DNA of 36,527 bases, taken from the IMG/VR virus record IMGVR_UViG_3300033068_000287, positions 85,498 to 122,024 of that record; one strand, 5' to 3'. This DNA is from a virus (Duplodnaviria > Heunggongvirae > Uroviricota > Caudoviricetes). How positions within the stretch are numbered: position 1 is the stretch's first letter; every line of letters begins with the position of its first letter. The notes beneath the pieces were generated by a model. That model saw nothing but the letters and a program-made list of their open reading frames with translations, was not told the DNA's origin and did not search any database. This document shows, one piece after another, positions 17,813-31,626 of the stretch. The position numbers and the translations under genes are program-made.

Positions 17813-19162
17813 ATGAGCAATTTTGAAGTTAAAGTCGTTAAAATCGATGCGGTCGAAAATCATCCGAATGCGGATCGTTTATCAATTATTAAAATTGGTG
17901 GGTTTGATTGTATTTCTGGTAAATTGGAAGATGGTAGCCATCGGTATAACACCGGCGATTTAGTTGTTTATATTCCAGAAGCTGCGGTCGTTCCTGAATG
18001 GATTCTGCGCAAGCTAGGATTCTGGGATCAAAATTGTGGCACTCTTTCTGGTTCTCACGGAAATCGCGTTAAAGCCATCAAGCTACGCAAGATCGTTTCT
18101 CAAGGTATTTTGTTTCCTGTTACGAAAAGCATGATTCCAGACTCAACTCTACCACTTTCTACATTTACTGTTCATGCAGAATACACACAAAAAGATATTG
18201 ACGAATTGCGTTTTCATTTTGATAGCGGTAATGCTGGTCTTGAAAATGAAGAATACGAAGCAGCCATTGCTGAAGTTGATGCGTTGGTTCCCGGTAATAT
18301 CAGGGCATCAATGAATGTTGCCGAAGGTGATGATGTTGCAGCATTTCTAGGCATTACAAAATACGAACCGACAGTTCCTGTATCTATGCAAGGTAAAATC
18401 GGCACACTATTCGGTTATACGAAATCATACGATATCGAAAACCTTCAGAAAAACATGAATGCGTTTGAAGAAAACGAACCGGTTGTTATGACAGAAAAAC
18501 TTCATGGTACTTTGTGCCAAGTTGGTTATCTGACAAATCTTCCAGAAGAAAAAGCAAATGATGTTTTCCTTGCTTCAGAAAATCCAAAAATCCATTCGTA
18601 TGTTACGTCTAAAGGATTGGCAAAAAGCGGTCTAATTCAGAAAAATTCTGATGACAACCAAGAAAATATCTATGTCAAAGCATACAAAGATTATTTTGAT
18701 AACGAACAGGTTGTTAATGCAGTTAAATCTCTTATGGAAGCAGAATCTGCATACAATAAAGCATCCATTAACGTTTATGTCTTTGGTGAAGTTTTTGGTA
18801 AAGGTATTCAAGACTTGGGCTATGATACTGAACCAACATTTAATGTTTTTGATGTTTACGTTAGCCTTAATGGTGAAAATAACGGATATTATCTAAATGA
18901 TAAATTCTTGGAACAGTTTTGTACAGAAGCTGGACTAAATCGCGTTCCTGTATTGTATAGAGGTCCATACAGTATTGAGAAAGCGACAGAAGTCCGTGAC
19001 GGAAAAACAACGCTAGGAAACAAATCACATATCCGTGAAGGTATTGTTATTCGTCCTACTATTGAGAAATACAATGTCCGTGGTCTTCCTGATGGTCGTC
19101 TACAATTGAAATTCGTAAGTCCTGATTATCTTCTAAGAAAAGATGGAACAGAATTCAATTAA
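17813..19162 (+). CDS. ATP-dependent RNA ligase (DRB0094/Rnl5-like) with N-terminal OB domain
   Basis: HPNADRL...GDLVVYIPE N-domain; motif I TEKLHGT, GEVFGKGIQ, REGIVIRP, LKFVSPDYL. Confidence 0.9.
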   Translation: MSNFEVKVVKIDAVENHPNADRLSIIKIGGFDCISGKLEDGSHRYNTGDLVVYIPEAAVVPEWILRKLGFWDQNCGTLSGSHGNRVKAIKLRKIVSQGILFPVTKSMIPDSTLPLSTFTVHAEYTQKDIDELRFHFDSGNAGLENEEYEAAIAEVDALVPGNIRASMNVAEGDDVAAFLGITKYEPTVPVSMQGKIGTLFGYTKSYDIENLQKNMNAFEENEPVVMTEKLHGTLCQVGYLTNLPEEKANDVFLASENPKIHSYVTSKGLAKSGLIQKNSDDNQENIYVKAYKDYFDNEQVVNAVKSLMEAESAYNKASINVYVFGEVFGKGIQDLGYDTEPTFNVFDVYVSLNGENNGYYLNDKFLEQFCTEAGLNRVPVLYRGPYSIEKATEVRDGKTTLGNKSHIREGIVIRPTIEKYNVRGLPDGRLQLKFVSPDYLLRKDGTEFN

Positions 19163-21739: not shown

Positions 21740-21865
21740 ATGCAAAAATTGTCAAAAGTTTGGGAATACATGATTCATATGCCTATTCCAACCAATACAC
21801 AGAAAACACAGACACAAACTAAATCAAATACTACACCCAATAATCTTATTGGGCCTAAACTTTGA
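21740..21865 (+). CDS. hypothetical 41-aa protein
   Basis: Fills the gap between flanking ORFs. Confidence 0.35.
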   Translation: MQKLSKVWEYMIHMPIPTNTQKTQTQTKSNTTPNNLIGPKL

Positions 21866-21872
21866 GGCTGTA

Positions 21873-22154
21873 ATGGACAGAAAATTTACAGAAACAAACG
21901 ATGCTCCTGGATATCATATATCTGATATTCCCAAGGGAACGTTTGGTAATGAAAGTAAAATTGTAGAAGAATGTGCTGAATTTATTGATGCTCTAGATCA
22001 AGATTGTAAGATCATGGCATTAGTAGAATTGGCAGATTTGGTTGGTGCTATCGAAGGATATCTCCATGAGAATTTTGAAGGAATAGAACTTCATGATTTA
22101 CAAAAAATGTCAAAAATCACAAAGAGAGCATTTGAAAATGGACATAGAACTTAA
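21873..22154 (+). CDS. MazG-like all-alpha NTP pyrophosphatase-fold protein
   Basis: GAGG RBS before ATG 21873; EECAE (EExxE) and VELADL (ExxD) motifs. Confidence 0.55.
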   Translation: MDRKFTETNDAPGYHISDIPKGTFGNESKIVEECAEFIDALDQDCKIMALVELADLVGAIEGYLHENFEGIELHDLQKMSKITKRAFENGHRT

Positions 22155-22590
22155 TGTAAACAATGCAGAAATGAAGCAACAGCTAATTTCTCTATTATGT
22201 CACACCGACCATCATATTGGACCGGCTAAGATTGATAAAAATACTTATATGTATGATTATTTCTCATTACATTTTGATGTTATGTCTGTAACTTCTCCTG
22301 CTACTCTTGTTATTCGCGGAGGTGAAAAATATGTCGCCGTAGTAACTTCCGTAGTATTTGATATGGAAGATGGAATGGATAAAATGCTACGAACTTTAAT
22401 CAATCAAGTTCCTAACTTAAATACAGTTGTTGGTATTTACGAAGTAATGCCATTAGAAAACAATAAAGTTAAGTTTAGATATTTTGTATGCCCTACAGAA
22501 AGCACATATAAATCTAGAAATGAAGAAAAATTTCAACAGTTAAAAGAAATGACTAAAAATGGAACAGAGCCTTCCGGAGATAAACTATAA
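22138..22590 (+). CDS. hypothetical protein
   Basis: Likely start ATG 22138; lies between the MazG-like and aaRS-like genes. Confidence 0.55.
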   Translation: MDIELNVNNAEMKQQLISLLCHTDHHIGPAKIDKNTYMYDYFSLHFDVMSVTSPATLVIRGGEKYVAVVTSVVFDMEDGMDKMLRTLINQVPNLNTVVGIYEVMPLENNKVKFRYFVCPTESTYKSRNEEKFQQLKEMTKNGTEPSGDKL

Positions 22591-23161
22591 AAATCTATCT
22601 GATGCTTTAGAATTTTATAAAGCATTTGGATATGAATATGTTGAAGTTCCTTGGATTGTTCCTCGGAACGTTACACAAATTACATTGAATACGGATGAAG
22701 TTAATCCTATTGAAATGTATGAAGGTATGTCTGCTGGCGGCTACGGCGGAAAATCAAATGGTGATCTTGTTGGCTCTGCTGAACAAGGATTCTTATATTT
22801 GATGGAACAAAATAAATTAGAACATGGTGATTATTGTGCATTAACGCCATGTTTTAGAAAAGAACAATATGTAACTAACTTACATAGACCATATTTTATG
22901 AAAGTAGAACTTTGTTCTTTTCAAGCTACTAAAACAGATTGTAAACCAAAGTTAAAATCAATTATTGATATCTGCTATAGATATTTCAAATTGACTGGAT
23001 ATACACCAGATAAAGTATCAACACCAGACGGTATTGATTTTATGCTTAATGGTATTGAAATCGGTTCTTATGGTATCAGATCGTTTAAAAATTTTCATTG
23101 GGTCTATGGTACAGGATTAGCTGAACCAAGATTCCAACAAGCAACACAACAGAAAGAATAA
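22559..23161 (+). CDS. stand-alone class II aminoacyl-tRNA-synthetase-like catalytic core
   Basis: Motif1-like GYEYVEVPW, GSAEQ (TxE loop), motif 2 PCFRKE...HRPYFMKVE, GIEIGSYG, motif 3 GTGLAEPR; no anticodon-binding domain (200 aa). Confidence 0.7.
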   Translation: MEQSLPEINYKNLSDALEFYKAFGYEYVEVPWIVPRNVTQITLNTDEVNPIEMYEGMSAGGYGGKSNGDLVGSAEQGFLYLMEQNKLEHGDYCALTPCFRKEQYVTNLHRPYFMKVELCSFQATKTDCKPKLKSIIDICYRYFKLTGYTPDKVSTPDGIDFMLNGIEIGSYGIRSFKNFHWVYGTGLAEPRFQQATQQKE

Positions 23162-24102: not shown

Positions 24103-24378
24103 ATGACAACAAATAAATTTTTCATTTTTAGATTTTGGGCAGACGATAAAGAATTTCTATTAGATTTTGTTTATCATGACGGATGGAAACGTTCTATCGT
24201 ACTCAATCAATTAGTTCTGTTATTTCCAGATGCTAAATCATTCAAACTATTCGATGGTATTACGGAATTTTCATGGGATAATACTCCAGAAGATTTGCAA
24301 GATATTATCAATAAAATTGAGTATGTCGAAGCTAAAACTGATATTTACGATAAGGAAATTGATAATAGCAATGAGTGA
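24103..24378 (+). CDS. hypothetical protein
   Basis: 91-aa ORF. Confidence 0.55.
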
Positions 24379-24595
24379 TGATTCAGAAACAGGTCCAGCA
24401 TGGACCATCTATCGCAAAAAGCCTATAATGGTTATGGCATATCGCACAGACGAAGAAATTCAAATTCATACTCTAGAAGGTGTAATGACCGCAAGCCCGG
24501 GCGATTATATTATTTCTGGTGTTAATGGTGAGCAATATCCTTGCAAACCAGATATATTTGATAAAACATATGATAAAGTGGAGATATCAGAATAA
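24371..24595 (+). CDS. small conserved phage protein (YRKKP...TLEG...[12 protein letters not shown] family, PGDYG-like)
   Basis: Start ATG 24371 with TAAGGA upstream; family motif clear. Confidence 0.75.
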
Positions 24596-24894
24596 TGACG
24601 GACGCAAGGGATTATTCACAAGTTCTTGAATGTATACGAAAAAATGATGGAACGGTTATTTTATATATAAAAGATAAGCGTGATAATAGTCTATGGATAG
24701 AGATTCATACAAATACGCAAGCGGAATGTTCTGTAAAAAGTCTTTTGAAAGGTGATGCTAAGGCTCCCTGTGTCAGAATGCCTATAACACAAGATGAAAT
24801 TGATAATAAAATTGACTATGATCTTTCTAAAATTTATACGGAATTTATAGAACATTATAAAGTAAAAATACTTGACTTTCCAAATCAAATCTGA
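24595..24894 (+). CDS. hypothetical protein
   Basis: 99 aa, TAATG-coupled. Confidence 0.5.
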   Translation: MTDARDYSQVLECIRKNDGTVILYIKDKRDNSLWIEIHTNTQAECSVKSLLKGDAKAPCVRMPITQDEIDNKIDYDLSKIYTEFIEHYKVKILDFPNQI

Positions 24895-24900
24895 TATACT
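24872..24900 (+). promoter_or_regulatory. sigma70-type promoter for the RNA cluster
   Basis: TTGACT (24872-24877), 17 nt, TG-a-TATACT (24895-24900). Confidence 0.75.
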
Positions 24901-24901
24901 C

Positions 24902-24909
24902 TATAAATA
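24902..24909 (+). promoter_or_regulatory. T4-type late promoter, in tandem with the early promoter
   Basis: Exact TATAAATA, 8 nt before the structured RNA. Confidence 0.7.
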
Positions 24910-24917
24910 GAATTGAT

Positions 24918-25024
24918 TGAGACTTTTTAGTCCAATCCCGGCAGGCTCGATTCCTGTCCGTACTCACAATATGGTGCACCATGTTAAGAATATGAAAGGT
25001 TTGGGATTGGACTAAGAAGTTTCA
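24918..25024 (+). ncRNA. structured RNA: 22-bp terminal stem enclosing a T-arm-like hairpin (Y-RNA-like tRNA mimic candidate)
   Basis: 24918-24939 pairs with 25003-25024 (20 Watson-Crick + 2 G-U); internal GGCAGG-CTCGATT-CCTGTC. Confidence 0.65.
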
Positions 25025-25032
25025 CAATACTA

Positions 25033-25106
25033 TGCGCTAGTCGTCTAGGAGCAGGACGCCTCCATTGGGGAGGAAACTCGGGTGCGAGTCCCGACACGGT
25101 GCATCA
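25033..25106 (+). tRNA. non-canonical tRNA-like RNA (Gln-like TTG if read with a 7-nt loop)
   Basis: D stem GTCT/GGAC; anticodon arm CCTCC-ATTGG-GGAGG; T arm TCGGG-TGCGAGT-CCCGA; irregular acceptor; no encoded CCA. Confidence 0.6.
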
Positions 25107-25113
25107 TTTATTT

Positions 25114-25187
25114 TGTGCTAGTAGTGTAATAGAAAGCACGCCTAACTATTAAATTAGGAAGTTTGGTTTAAATCCAACACGGCACAC
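25114..25187 (+). tRNA. non-canonical tRNA-like RNA with 8-nt anticodon loop
   Basis: D stem GTGT/GCAC; CCTAA-CTATTAAA-TTAGG; T arm TTGG-TTTAAAT-CCAA; acceptor TGTGCT/GGCACA; no CCA. Confidence 0.6.
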
Positions 25188-25195
25188 TAAAACTT

Positions 25196-25409
25196 AGACT
25201 ATTTAAGAATGCGTTTTGTGAACGATATATAATGTAGAACATATTCCTAAACAGTCTTATTATGGGCGCACTGTTATACAGGTAAGACGCACACCAATTC
25301 GCAAGAATTATTCTTGCACAGTAATTCAATACCATGACGGTATTGATGGAAAGGGTTTAACGAAGAATAGGCCCTTTGTTTGTAATAATGGCATTGCCTT
25401 AGAGCCATT
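25196..25409. other. hairpin-dense non-coding region
   Basis: Five inverted repeats within about 215 nt; no substantial + strand ORF seen. Confidence 0.55.
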
Positions 25410-25444
25410 TCCCTAAATGAAACTTAAACTAAGGAAAATACTAA

Positions 25445-25987
25445 ATGAAAACTAAAATGTCACGACTACTAATGCTAGGCATGGCTGCTTTTGCTCTTGT
25501 TATGATGCTAACCACTATGGCTAACGCACAAGAGTTTAAACCGTATGTCGGCGTAGACTATCAATATACACAACTAAATGATGTAACTTCCGGCGAAGAC
25601 AATCTGAAATCCGGCAATCTACACATTGGTACCAAAGTACACCAAAATCTAGGCTTTGAAGCCGGTGTTTCCAAAAGCGTAGCAGAAGTTACAGCAGGAT
25701 CAAAAGTTGATCTAACTGTATATAATGTTGATGCGATTGGCTATCTACCAGTTACACAAAAACTTGATCTATTAGGTACAGTTGGTGTTACATATACCAT
25801 TCTTGATAGCAATACTGTAGCTTCAGAAAACGAATATGGTTATGCAGTTGGTACAGGCGTTTCTTATGCCCTTACTGATAAAGTAGCTGTACGTTCTTTG
25901 ATTCGCTACGAAGACACTGATTTGAATACCATCGGTTCTAATGATGGCGCATTTAAATACACTGTTGGTGCAAACTACAGTTTCTAA
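25445..25987 (+). CDS. outer-membrane 8-stranded beta-barrel protein (OmpA-TM/porin family)
   Basis: Signal peptide ending ANA-QE; PYVG.DY, GFEAG, YAVGTGVSY, VRSLIRY, terminal GANYSF (BAM beta-signal); TAAGGA RBS. Confidence 0.85.
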   Translation: MKTKMSRLLMLGMAAFALVMMLTTMANAQEFKPYVGVDYQYTQLNDVTSGEDNLKSGNLHIGTKVHQNLGFEAGVSKSVAEVTAGSKVDLTVYNVDAIGYLPVTQKLDLLGTVGVTYTILDSNTVASENEYGYAVGTGVSYALTDKVAVRSLIRYEDTDLNTIGSNDGAFKYTVGANYSF

Positions 25988-26001
25988 TGCCAGTTGGCCT
26001 C

Positions 26002-26032
26002 GGAAGGTAGGGTAATTCCTACCTTCCATTTT
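26002..26032 (+). terminator. intrinsic terminator
   Basis: GGAAGGTAGG-GTAATT-CCTACCTTCC followed by ATTTT. Confidence 0.75.
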
Positions 26033-26062
26033 ATAAAACCTATTTTAGAAATTTTATATATT

Positions 26063-26614
26063 ATGAATATTTTTTATCTAGACACTTCCGCAGAAATTGC
26101 AGCAAGAATGCAACATAACAGACATGTTGTTAAAATGATTGTAGAAACTGCGCAACTATTGTGTACAGCACATAGAGTCATAGATGGTGAATTAAAAACC
26201 GTTACAGTTAACGGTAAAGAAAAATCAAAATGGATTCATCCAGACCTCGAATATCATAATGCTTTATATAGAGCAACACACATTAATCATCCAAGTGCAA
26301 TTTGGGCTAGACAATCTTCAGCGAATTATAATTGGCTGTATAGACATTTTCTTGCACTTATGACAGAATATACTTACAGATATGGAAAGAATCATAAATG
26401 TGAATATTTGATTCCATATCTAGCAAATCATCCAGAAGATATTTCATTGAATATTTTCACGGTTCCTCCACAATGTATGCCTGACGATGTTAAAGACGAA
26501 CACGACACGGTTAAAGCGTATAGAAATTACTATAACAAATATAAGAAATTTGCAAAAAACGGCAGCGAAAATAAATTTACCCCTAGGAATAAACCGGAGT
26601 GGCTAACATGGTAA
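26063..26614 (+). CDS. pyrimidine-dimer DNA glycosylase-family protein (DenV-related Pyr_excise family)
   Basis: Start ATG 26063: MNIFYLD...A....HVVKMI.E.AQLL.TAH; Y.ATH.NHPSAIWAR; PPQCMPD...AYR.YY. Confidence 0.75.
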   Translation: MNIFYLDTSAEIAARMQHNRHVVKMIVETAQLLCTAHRVIDGELKTVTVNGKEKSKWIHPDLEYHNALYRATHINHPSAIWARQSSANYNWLYRHFLALMTEYTYRYGKNHKCEYLIPYLANHPEDISLNIFTVPPQCMPDDVKDEHDTVKAYRNYYNKYKKFAKNGSENKFTPRNKPEWLTW

Positions 26615-28031: not shown

Positions 28032-28433
28032 ATGACTGAACTAATTAAAAATCCTGTACTATATGTTTTGATGCGTACTGATATGCATTCTATGAATGCT
28101 GGTAAAGGTATGGCACAAGCATGTCATGCAGCGAATCAAATGGTTCATGGAATCTCTGATAAAACATTGCTGGCCGCATGGCAAAAACAAGGCAAAGGTT
28201 TCGGTACAACAATTGTATTGGATGCAGGGTCTATTGAAAACATTCACAATATTATAGAGAATTGTTTTCAAGCAGGATCGAACGATTGTGGAACTGTTAA
28301 AGACACATCATACCCAATTCGTGATGGTTCAGTAACTCACTTGCTGCCTGTTGATACTTGTGGTTATGTCTTTGCTGATAGAGACGCACGATTCGTCAAA
28401 GATTATCTAAGCATTTTGCCACTACACCGTTAA
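28032..28433 (+). CDS. peptidyl-tRNA hydrolase PTH2-family protein
   Basis: LYVLMRTDM.SMNAGK..AQACHA, W..QG..T.VL, V.D. Confidence 0.7.
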   Translation: MTELIKNPVLYVLMRTDMHSMNAGKGMAQACHAANQMVHGISDKTLLAAWQKQGKGFGTTIVLDAGSIENIHNIIENCFQAGSNDCGTVKDTSYPIRDGSVTHLLPVDTCGYVFADRDARFVKDYLSILPLHR

Positions 28434-28510: not shown

Positions 28511-28723
28511 ATGAATGAAAAAGATTTAGTAAAGAAAATTGCCCATGCCGTAGCGAAAGCCAGATACCAAGCTATCTATGGCTGGACGGACGAACAGGTA
28601 GAAACTTTTTGGAATAATCCAAAATCAAATTTTTTTAATAAAGATGAATATCTGGAAGCTGCTAAAGTAGCACTTGACGTAATTCTGCAATATCAGAAAG
28701 AACAAAATAATGACAATTCATAA
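28511..28723 (+). CDS. hypothetical protein
   Basis: 70 aa; first gene after the promoter. Confidence 0.6.
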   Translation: MNEKDLVKKIAHAVAKARYQAIYGWTDEQVETFWNNPKSNFFNKDEYLEAAKVALDVILQYQKEQNNDNS

Positions 28724-29918
28724 TAGAATGATGAAAGCAACGGACACAGCATTTAAATCTCTGCATAAGTTGTTTAGTGATAATGGCAAATCATTGTGGA
28801 TGGTTGGTGGTGCTGTAAGGGATTTGCAGTCTGGCAATGGTTTTCCTATGGATATTGATTTTTGTACTGATGCTACACCAGACGAAATGAAAGCTATGGT
28901 CAATGATAACTATGGCTGGAAACTGTTCGAAACAGGAATTTCACATGGTACAGTTACATTTATGTCATTGTTGGGATGTTTTGAAATCACAACTTTGCGC
29001 AAGGATGTTGAGTGTAATGGCCGCCATGCGTCTGTTGAATTTACTACATCTTTGAAAGAAGATGCATCCAGACGCGATTTTACATTTAATGCCATGTATA
29101 TGGACATTGATGGTAAAATTTATGACTTTTTTGATGGCCAAACTGATTTGGATAATCAAAAAGTTAAATTTATCGGAAACGCAGAAGATCGTATTAAAGA
29201 AGATGCTTTGCGCATTCTGCGCTATTTCCGCTTTCTGTCTGAATACAATAACTATGATGAAGCAGACTTTGACGCAGTTAAAGCAAATATTAAATTGCTA
29301 GAAGGTGTTTCTGTAGAACGTATTTGGTCGGAAATTTCAAAGGCTGCATGTAAAAATCCAATAAAAATGTCGTCATTTTTTGATTTTATGATTTTGTCTG
29401 GTTCTATGGAAATTCTTGGAATTCCTGTCAGCAAGGACATTAATATTAGCCGTATGAGAGATATCTATTCGACCCGAGGCGAATATCCTGCTATTTTTCC
29501 AGAATTCTTCATGGCAGCAATTTTGCCTGATCCTATCGCAACTTCTAATTTCTGTGATAAGTTTAAAGTATCGAATACTGGCAGAGAAAGAATGATGTGG
29601 TTCAGTAATATGATTGACCGCTATGGTCATAAAGACAGTAAAAACTATTTTGGACCTGATGCAGTAAAAGAGCATATGTATATGGACGGAGATCGTCCTG
29701 AACATTTGCAAGCATTTGCCTCATTTTATGGTGACAGGTTTCTGGAAGAAAGCATTAATCATATTCCTAGACTGAAATTTCCAGTAACAGGTCAAGATTT
29801 GCTGGATAAAGGTTTTACTCCTGGACCGCATATTGGTGAAAAACTGGCTAAAATGAAAAAACGCTGGAAAGTTTCAGATTACACAGCTACGAAAGAACAG
29901 CTAATAAATAGAATTTAA
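28710..29918 (+). CDS. cca: CCA-adding tRNA nucleotidyltransferase (class II)
   Basis: VGGAVRD, DIDF.TDATP, EITTLRKD, DA.RRDFT.NAMY, RI.EDALRILRYFRF, ERIW.E, FPVTG.DL...G..PGP.IG. Confidence 0.92.
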   Translation: MTIHNRMMKATDTAFKSLHKLFSDNGKSLWMVGGAVRDLQSGNGFPMDIDFCTDATPDEMKAMVNDNYGWKLFETGISHGTVTFMSLLGCFEITTLRKDVECNGRHASVEFTTSLKEDASRRDFTFNAMYMDIDGKIYDFFDGQTDLDNQKVKFIGNAEDRIKEDALRILRYFRFLSEYNNYDEADFDAVKANIKLLEGVSVERIWSEISKAACKNPIKMSSFFDFMILSGSMEILGIPVSKDINISRMRDIYSTRGEYPAIFPEFFMAAILPDPIATSNFCDKFKVSNTGRERMMWFSNMIDRYGHKDSKNYFGPDAVKEHMYMDGDRPEHLQAFASFYGDRFLEESINHIPRLKFPVTGQDLLDKGFTPGPHIGEKLAKMKKRWKVSDYTATKEQLINRI

Positions 29919-30101: not shown

Positions 30102-30526
30102 TGAACACTAATATTCCAGAGGGAATGATTCTTGTTCCCGAAAAAGAATTTAATGAATTTGTTAATTCATGCAAAAAAGTTGAGAAATTCTTTGAGAGTT
30201 ATTTCTCTGATTCTGATTTTGATCGTGATGGATATTTGTCTGGTGTAGAAGCTGATTTTTCTGTAAGTCTGTTTGATCTTATGTATAAGGTGACAACAAA
30301 CCCTAGTGTTATGTCTGTAAAAATAGATGCTGTAGGGGATTGGTTTGTAGCGACAAGCGAAGACTTTACAAGTTTAATGGTATCGCACCCAAATCTACCA
30401 GACCTTTTGGCAGATTTACCTACTGCGATCAAAACCTTATACAAATTTCAGTACGGAACGAATGTCGAAGTTGTAGCAACAGAACAATCTATTCCTGACG
30501 ATATTCAGGATGGTGGACATTTTTAA
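30101..30526 (+). CDS. hypothetical protein with C-terminal DUF1902/HicB-like motif
   Basis: WFVATSEDF..L......L..L...LP..I..L. Confidence 0.5.
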   Translation: MNTNIPEGMILVPEKEFNEFVNSCKKVEKFFESYFSDSDFDRDGYLSGVEADFSVSLFDLMYKVTTNPSVMSVKIDAVGDWFVATSEDFTSLMVSHPNLPDLLADLPTAIKTLYKFQYGTNVEVVATEQSIPDDIQDGGHF

Positions 30527-31080: not shown

Positions 31081-31626
31081 ATGATTACCGTAACAGATAT
31101 CCAAACAGCATTTGACAAACAAAAACAATTTGATTTTGTCATTAGTCTGATTGATACCGATTGGCATAATGAAGACCATAGACAAGAATTTATGTCAAAG
31201 ATGCGCCCAAAGTTGTGGAGGGTTATGAGGTTTGAAGACGTTATAAACCCTGATGCGGTGGACGCTCCAACAGAACATAATATTCAAGAGTTATTGAATA
31301 TTTGGCAGGAACTATCTGATATCAAAGTCCGTTGTGGCGAACCACCACTAACCGAACAGAACGTTCTAGTCCACTGTCATGGAGGAATTGCACGTTCTAC
31401 AGCATTAACCATTATTTTGTTTATTAAGTTCTTTGGAATGACCGTTCCAGAAGCATTTGAAAAAATGTTAGAGATTCGTCCACAAATGTGGCCTAATGAC
31501 TTGATTTTATCTCATGGTGATGCTATACTAAAGCTAAATGGAGAACTCATTGCTTTTGATAAGGCATGGAAAAAAGAAAATCTAGGCAAATTCTGGATTA
31601 GTCCTCCAGTCAGAATTAAACCATAA
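31081..31626 (+). CDS. Cys-based (tyrosine/dual-specificity-like) phosphatase
   Basis: LVHCHGGIARSTA (CX5R), FEDV acid loop, IRP..WPN. Confidence 0.85.
   Translation: MITVTDIQTAFDKQKQFDFVISLIDTDWHNEDHRQEFMSKMRPKLWRVMRFEDVINPDAVDAPTEHNIQELLNIWQELSDIKVRCGEPPLTEQNVLVHCHGGIARSTALTIILFIKFFGMTVPEAFEKMLEIRPQMWPNDLILSHGDAILKLNGELIAFDKAWKKENLGKFWISPPVRIKP

Follow-up and report, generated by a model that had tools for sequence, protein, structure and literature searches.

A tandem pair of tRNA-like RNAs with non-standard anticodon loops beside a stable hairpin RNA in a T4-like phage genome

The stretch of DNA analysed here (36,527 nt, referred to as the window) is the final 36.5 kb of a 122-kb IMG/VR virus record, which is estimated to be ~68% complete. 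Its source is a deep-branching T4-like phage, and the T4-type genes found in the window include RNase H, NrdA/B, ThyX, an RNA ligase and a PolyA_pol-family nucleotidyltransferase. ORFs are densely packed under table 11, with a median gap of 2 nt between them. The largest inter-ORF gap (24895-25444) measures 550 nt, the next one 174 nt, and this sole large non-coding gap of the window holds two tRNA-like elements, which we termed TL1 and TL2. The features relevant to this pair are as follows:

24872..24909, + strand: putative promoter pair, a sigma-70-type TTGACT-17-TATACT (24872-24900) overlapped by a T4-late-type TATAAATA (24902-24909)
24907..25033, + strand: hairpin RNA of 127 nt, closing pairs 24907-24910 with 25030-25033
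25034..25103, + strand: TL1, a 70-nt cloverleaf with G3.U70, A73 and anticodon loop ATTGG, without CCA
25104..25114, + strand: U-rich spacer of 11 nt, being the TL1 trailer and TL2 leader, with U(-1) as its last base
25115..25186, + strand: TL2, a 72-nt cloverleaf with an 8-nt anticodon loop CTATTAAA and a 4-bp T-stem, without CCA
25196..25409, + strand: downstream hairpin block with a terminator-like stem-loop (25350-25377), preceding the OMP gene (25445-25987)
28710..29918, + strand: class II nucleotidyltransferase (PF01743, 4.9e-29), best match CCA tRNA nucleotidyltransferase

The sigma-70-type element matches the consensus at 10 of 12 positions in a consensus scan and has an extended -10 (TG upstream of the -10), while the T4-late-type element was read directly from the sequence; judged by these matches, the elements at 24872-24909 probably act as a promoter. 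By the established spacing, a transcript from the sigma-70 -10 element would be expected to start at 24907, which is the first base of the 127-nt hairpin. This hairpin is very stable (MFE -54.9 kcal/mol, z -7.3), none of 200 shuffled sequences being equally stable, and its outermost pair, A24907-U25033, is followed directly by the +1 base of TL1, G25034. The downstream hairpin block, taken as a whole, has a fold z of -4.7.

Several genes around the gap relate to tRNA and RNA ends and form a loose island, namely a DRB0094-type RNA ligase (17813-19162), which carries an N-terminal OB domain, a Pth2-like peptidyl-tRNA hydrolase (28032-28433), the CCA-type nucleotidyltransferase (28710-29918) and a dual-specificity phosphatase (31081-31626). 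The nucleotidyltransferase, located 3.5 kb downstream of the TLs, aligns with CCA tRNA nucleotidyltransferase from end to end and scores 181.9 bits against NF009814 over residues 10-385, under the curated cut-off of 290; a preliminary description of this DNA had likewise stated that the phage possesses a CCA enzyme. The product of the gene at 22559-23161 is a minimal class II aaRS-like protein, a catalytic core that lacks an anticodon-binding domain (phrog_4806, 2.6e-42) and belongs to a large family of ~185-aa proteins. Distant phage contigs preserve the pairing of this gene with the small gene at 21849-22154; in the present phage, an extra ORF (22093-22590) intervenes. Closer to the gap, a listed 121-aa ORF (24230-24595) probably starts at ATG 24371, sharing bases with the preceding gene's TGA stop, and would then encode a 74-aa PGDYG-domain protein (PF14083, 26.6 bits; cut-off 27).

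No RNA gene was called in the window by ARAGORN at default settings or by Rfam at gathering thresholds. A sensitive cmscan of the gap aligned TL2 to the tRNA family (RF00005) over all 71 model positions with 28.4 bits (E 8.6e-4 for 611 nt x 4227 families), and a focused cmscan of 85 nt aligned TL1, again over all 71 positions, with 21.6 bits (E 8.7e-3), both scores lying below the curated gathering score of 29 bits. Rescaled to the tRNA family alone and to the entire window, the E-values are ~1e-5 for TL2 and ~9e-4 for TL1; both elements resemble tRNA beyond chance. ARAGORN detected TL2 at -ps90, and also at -ps80, as tRNA-?(atta) with an 8-nt loop, and at -ps90 it reported 25 hits on the genome versus 1.3 in first-order Markov simulations. 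TL1 yielded only a fragment, at -ps50.

What the preliminary description had read from the letters is all borne out, with some corrections to the pairing. Both elements form four-arm cloverleaves with proper D and T arms, and both carry the odd acceptor strings noted there, 5' TGCGCTAGT (25033-25041) and TGTGCTAGT (25114-25122) and 3' CACGGTGCA (25095-25103) and CACGGCACA (25178-25186). One acceptor pair was reassigned: the description had paired T25033 with A25103, and while its strings are correct, T25033 is more likely the last base of the hairpin, which makes A25103 and A25186 the discriminator bases. The acceptor defect common to both TLs consists of an A6 mismatch and one extra C in the 3' strand. 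Infernal places it as G7-C66, A6.A67 and an inserted C; registers with A6.C plus G7.A, or with a bulged A6, are equally possible. The acceptor pair strings are --.-.xx and ----.xx, and the stem comprises five pairs, then the mismatch or bulge, then one pair. The compensatory C-G to T-A change in the acceptor was likewise found, at the pair numbered 2-71 here, and the next position is G3.U70 in TL1 and G3-C70 in TL2. As had been observed, CCA is not encoded, the bases after the discriminator A being TCA (TL1) and CTA (TL2).

The anticodon stems (CCTCC/GGAGG in TL1, CCTAA/TTAGG in TL2) are intact, and they enclose loops of 5 and 8 nt, as originally described; that of TL1 is closed by C-G. With anticodon loops other than 7 nt in both TLs, the earlier view that they are unlikely to decode normally finds support in evidence internal to the two elements. 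The D-stem has 4 bp, the D-loop 7-8 nt (AGGAGCA in TL1, AATAGAAA in TL2) and the variable region 4 nt, and the T-loops read TGCGAGT (TL1) and TTTAAAT (TL2). The T-stem of TL2 has only four Watson-Crick pairs, pair 49-65 being broken. U8, A14, A21, G26, G53, T54, A58 and C61 are present in both elements, as are the interactions U8-A14, G26.A44, T54-A58 and G53-C61. At the Levitt pair 15-48 and at pair 19-56 alike, G-C in TL1 corresponds to A-U in TL2, whose D-loop has G18 A19, in agreement with the A19-U56 swap that had been suggested for TL2. Both TLs start at T/G, that is, U(-1)/G(+1) in RNA. Measured against the MFE structure, the cloverleaf is at most 1.5 kcal/mol less stable in TL1 and at most 0.5 kcal/mol in TL2, and the fold z-scores of the elements alone (-0.5 and -1.5) are non-significant for such short RNAs. 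Compared with canonical tRNAs, the TLs have the cloverleaf and the tertiary nucleotides but lack a score at the gathering level, a 7-nt loop with U33 and a regular 7-bp acceptor with CCA.

We calibrated these features against the tRNA genes of the phage itself, of which the record holds 15 by default ARAGORN calls, at 30-57 kb, and at least 5 more CCA-ending genes at relaxed settings. All 20 of these encode CCA, leaving the TLs as the sole tRNA-shaped genes of the phage without it. The RF00005 scores of the 20 CCA-bearing tRNAs lie between 61 and 23.4 bits, with tRNA-Asn at the bottom, so that the low scores of the TLs are by themselves no mark of decay. Mismatches at 6.67 occur in the phage's tRNA-Ala, -Gly and -Leu as well. 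What distinguishes the TLs is the combination of a missing CCA, anticodon loops of other than 7 nt and the acceptor defect they have in common. Set beside the GCGCTTG/CAGGCGC acceptor family (Leu-TAG, Gly), they have T6 changed to A and a C inserted after 67. No third copy of this acceptor signature was found elsewhere in the genome record; a 12-nt match at genome position 17914 was discarded as it lies within coding sequence.

Other tRNA-shaped genes of the record are also irregular. The tRNAs for Phe (genome 49654-49729), Ile (56666-56739) and His (30367-30440), which are CCA-bearing and apparently functional, have the T-loops AGCGAAA, AGCATTA and AGCGTTA, without T54 and U55 and with the G55 that is also seen in the TGCGAGT loop of TL1. 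Outside the window, a tRNA-Sec-like Ser gene (genome 50826-50922; RF01852 41.2 bits, gathering score 47) combines a long acceptor and a long variable arm with a D-stem of 6 bp capped by a tetraloop; its anticodon loop is CUUGAAA (UGA), CCA is encoded, and the gene resembles the phage 8/4 tRNA-Ser of Mukai et al. (PMC5389517). Two paralogous 83-nt tRNA-shaped genes, also outside the window (genome 48529-48611 and 52040-52122), have perfect 7-bp acceptors, canonical T-arms and CCA, and share an odd core (...CCGTAATTGGAGTTG.AAAT...) with no normal D/anticodon fold; the copy at 52040 scores 28.8 bits on RF00005.

The preliminary description had regarded the TLs as selected structure rather than decay. 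We compared the two arm by arm in the Infernal register; MAFFT misaligns their D and anticodon arms. Across 21 stem positions, 12 are identical, six differ by double compensatory changes, one by a single change (G.U to G-C), one is broken and one is a shared mismatch. The helices are spared by the defects, which fall in the anticodon loop and T-loop, at the 3' end and at one acceptor position. Six double compensatory changes against one broken pair, together with covariation at 15-48 and 19-56, favor the selected-structure view on internal evidence, and the pattern shows that structural constraint acts on each TL or did so until very recently. Divergence of the pair under selection from one ancestor is not proven by it: if TL1 and TL2 come from different tRNAs, which is possible, the seemingly compensatory changes would have been inherited rather than selected. 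The covariation, moreover, draws on two paralogs only, because no homolog was found. The acceptor stem is the most alike part of the two elements, whose middles differ as much as those of unrelated tRNAs, and their end similarity (15/19) is the top value among 231 pairs but exceeds that of Leu-TAG/TL1 (14/19) only marginally. The best argument for common descent, or for a common partner, is the identical two-change acceptor defect.

Our search for relatives covered several collections. A blastn of 24595-25987 against 50,697 phage records gave no match, and neither the exact nor the degenerate TL patterns matched in IMG/VR or in JGI metagenomes; in 185k prokaryote genomes they gave a single chance match inside coding sequence, with no tRNA there. 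No close homolog of the OMP gene was found, and neither the 315-aa gene nor the aaRS-like gene gave a match through IMG/VR. The gene at 25994-26614 (phrog_624) recurs at 80 loci with at most 54% identity and no other gene in common with the window. Canonical tRNAs lie 1-4 kb upstream of the phrog_624 homolog, on the same strand, at 12 of these 80 distant phage loci; without synteny, this says nothing about the TL locus. The 99-aa protein encoded upstream of the RNA cluster (24595-24894) has four small relatives (38-58% identity), none of them syntenic; samples ERZ28614452, ERZ27284557 and SRR14194042 contain relatives of its gene. None of the four contigs carrying homologs of the gene has a tRNA-like element: one contig stops where the gene does, and on the three others the gene is followed directly by a protein gene. 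One relative of the protein is 1133 aa long, with 13 repeats of the same domain. In the collections searched, the phage is an orphan, and the evidence on the TLs is internal to one genome.

Taken together, these observations have led us to favor, tentatively, the explanation that TL1 and TL2 are processed, non-decoding tRNA mimics and that the RNase P site of TL1 makes the 3' end of the hairpin RNA. The promoter pair would drive one non-coding RNA unit, running from the 127-nt hairpin through TL1 and TL2 to the further hairpins and possibly extending into the OMP gene. The TLs would be tRNA-derived, L-shaped RNAs that lost decoding along with the 7-nt anticodon loop and kept the determinants of processing, i.e., U(-1)/G(+1), an acceptor/T-arm stack of ~12 layers, the D/T elbow and the core tertiary pairs. 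Host RNase P would cleave the 5' end of each TL, and a cut before G25034 would end the hairpin RNA on the very base that pairs with 24907, its 5' end, leaving a flush-ended molecule. The 3' trailers would then be taken off by RNase Z or exonucleases, whereupon the phage nucleotidyltransferase would add CCA to TL1 and TL2, a step proposed on the ground that every other tRNA-shaped gene of the phage encodes CCA. In this model, the TLs would serve as 'punctuation' for processing, and once released the mimics may play an additional part.

That TL1 is flush with the 3' end of the hairpin (U25033/G25034), as a tRNA-like processing signal abutting a stable RNA would be, is what suggests such an RNase P punctuation role; transcription, all of the cleavages, the CCA addition and any later function are inferred. 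Two points sit uneasily with the model: the acceptor irregularity common to both TLs and the T-stem of TL2, with its 4 bp, would make recognition by RNase P weaker rather than stronger, and a punctuation role leaves the retained anticodon stems unexplained.

The layout is familiar from eukaryotes. In the mascRNA/MEN-beta (MALAT1-type) system, a cloverleaf lies 3' of a non-coding RNA, an RNase P cut makes the 3' end of the upstream RNA, and CCA is added to the cloverleaf. The TLs share this layout and a non-standard anticodon loop with mascRNA/MEN-beta (RF01684), which we use as a working analogy only; the latter RNAs are eukaryotic and nuclear and have no homology to the TLs, whose processing is predicted.

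Among phages, the nearest precedent in kind is the rnaC/rnaD pair of T4 (stable RNAs C/D, species 1/2): like the TLs, these are two tandem small non-tRNA RNAs of a T4-type phage with no assigned function. They differ in that rnaC/rnaD adjoin tRNA genes (in tandem, rnaD then rnaC, after tRNA-Arg) and are processed within the tRNA operon, whereas the TLs follow a hairpin RNA rather than a tRNA, with the tRNA genes of their phage 55-80 kb away. In addition, rnaC (139 nt) and rnaD (119 nt) are not cloverleaves, while the TLs are full cloverleaves of tRNA size, and no sequence similarity was found between the two pairs. T4 rnaC does have a canonical T-arm, an acceptor-like closing stem and a fold z of -4.6. 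Positional homology with the T4 region from the tRNAs through rnaD and rnaC to denV was considered and rejected, the anchor having only a sub-threshold Pyr_excise match and no BLASTP similarity to T4 DenV.

Irregular 8/4 or 9/3 tRNAs of phages and bacteria are missed by standard finders, sometimes have one bulged base, and in some cases have been proposed to be regulatory (PMC5389517). The TLs resemble these allo-tRNAs (PMC5389517) in being phage-encoded, evading the finders and having an irregular acceptor/T branch, yet they have no continuous 8-bp acceptor, long D-stem with tetraloop, long variable arm or 7-nt anticodon loop. With a 4-bp D-stem, a 4-nt variable region and an acceptor of five pairs, a defect and one further pair, they were rejected as members of this class. 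YrlA-type Y RNAs are non-coding tRNA mimics that are recognised by tRNA enzymes and occur also in phages (Chen et al., PMC4201824). YrlA, however, is a permuted module with a Ro60-binding closing stem, found beside Ro60, whereas the TLs are ordinary, unpermuted cloverleaves; they gave no match to RF02553 at E <= 10, and no TROVE (Ro60) or RtcB gene was found in the 122-kb record (~68% complete). In this context, the 127-nt hairpin directly upstream of TL1 is a candidate Y-RNA-like tRNA mimic. A tmRNA-type tRNA-like domain was excluded too, as ARAGORN found no tmRNA in the genome and the only permuted-tmRNA match reached 11.4 bits against a gathering score of 47; tmRNA has G3.U70 without an anticodon arm and is joined to a tag frame, while TL1 combines G3.U70 with a full anticodon arm. 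A tRNA-shaped gene not for translation is known from Bacillus cereus, whose tRNA-Other pseudo-tRNA is reported to have no translation function and yet a physiological effect (PMC3399842). It is a single chromosomal gene of a bacterium, and no processing role is known to have been proposed for it; the TLs are a phage pair.

A serious rival, even if we deem it somewhat unlikely, is that the TLs are decaying tRNA pseudogenes left over from a small tRNA cluster and now without function. Decay would account for the empty default ARAGORN run, the scores under the Rfam gathering threshold, the absence of a CCA that 20 of 20 other tRNA genes encode, the 5- and 8-nt anticodon loops, the acceptor mismatch with its extra base and the T-stem pair lost from TL2. 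It also fits the lack of relatives in the collections searched and of tRNA-like elements in the four contigs with homologs of the upstream gene. Set against this are the stems, in which one position of 21 is broken, in one copy, while six double changes still pair, the covariation of two tertiary pairs, and the scores of bona fide CCA-bearing tRNAs in the same phage, which go down to 23.4 bits. The location argues in the same direction: the TLs occupy the lone large non-coding gap of a genome stretch with a median gap of 2 nt, in what appears to be a promoter-led unit, and adjoin a very stable hairpin RNA with no base in between. Finally, both copies carry the identical two-change acceptor defect.

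It is also conceivable, at a distinctly lower probability, that the mature TLs serve as decoys or sponges for host defences that target tRNAs (anticodon nucleases, acceptor-end modifiers), thereby shielding the real tRNAs. Phage tRNAs with altered anticodon loops that evade host nucleases exist. The TLs retain the L-shape and the acceptor end with the decoding parts altered, and tRNA repair and salvage genes (the DRB0094-type RNA ligase, Pth2 and the CCA-type nucleotidyltransferase) are nearby. However, loops of 5 and 8 nt mimic no normal 7-nt target loop, and the phage is uncultured, without a known host or defence gene; decoying is a candidate role.

A broader version, to which we assign a slightly smaller chance still, envisages a dedicated tRNA-mimic system, in which the TLs, matured by RNase P and the CCA-adding enzyme of the phage, would be non-decoding acceptor-arm substrates acting as toxin sponges or charged for non-ribosomal use, the acceptor bulge keeping them from EF-Tu and the ribosome. 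The toxins soaked up would be ones that attack tRNA ends or anticodon loops, and charging would occur with alanine on TL1, via G3.U70, or on both TLs by the minimal aaRS-like enzyme.

Charging by itself, i.e., that the CCA-extended TLs are aminoacylated and used off the ribosome, TL1 by AlaRS (G3.U70/A73) or both by the 22559-23161 protein, strikes us as improbable. Among the 22 tRNA-shaped genes, only the phage's tRNA-Ala and TL1 have G3.U70, each along with A73, making alanylation of TL1 possible; the aaRS-like core, Pth2 and the CCA-type enzyme all lie within 4 kb, and the acceptor stem is what the TLs have most in common. TL2, though, has G3-C70, and the mismatch or bulge sits in the acceptor region that contacts synthetases and EF-Tu. 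The link to the aaRS-like enzyme that the preliminary description had raised finds no support at four loci with homologs of the enzyme: they retain its small upstream partner gene and, in the fetched contigs, have no tRNA-like RNA by ARAGORN -ps90 or by Rfam at E <= 10.

Least probable by our estimate, and very doubtful, is that TL2 at least is a working decoder, whether of a UAAU quadruplet, of ochre or, with an enlarged loop, of a triplet: its 8-nt loop opens with C-U, ARAGORN assigns it the anticodon 'atta', and tRNAs with 8-nt loops can be functional, as in SufB2-type frameshift suppressors (bioRxiv 10.1101/2020.12.31.424971), but TL1, whose 5-nt loop cannot decode, has the same acceptor defect, and neither TL encodes CCA. 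The recoding that had been suggested earlier is disfavored by the genome, in which TAA is the main stop codon and the stop context seen most often in the 192 frames of at least 100 codons is TAAT (52 frames). A long +1 continuation follows 8 of 52 TAAT stops versus 16 of 38 TAAA stops, which is no enrichment for TAAT, and no enrichment of readthrough or +1 continuation after TAAT/TAA was found among the 192 frames; with no matching recoding-site signal, TL2 was rejected as a frameshift or nonsense suppressor. A neighbouring candidate, a +1 frameshift between ORFs 24103-24378 and 24230-24595, was rejected, as the two meet in an ordinary ATGA-type overlap with the ATG at 24371; ORFs are dense under table 11.

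We regard the TLs as a novel form of phage tRNA-like stable RNAs, a kind already known, and most likely as functional, non-decoding mimics. Many phage genomes contain 'pseudo-tRNAs', which annotation pipelines discard or pass over; in the TLs, the damage is limited to the decoding parts, with helices and tertiary pairs kept. If the decoy or charging reading were true, the TLs would represent a new RNA player in the conflict between phage and host over tRNAs. If the processing model is true, the locus would be a bacterial-virus counterpart of the MALAT1/mascRNA arrangement, and it would provide a reason for a CCA-adding enzyme in a phage whose tRNAs all encode CCA.
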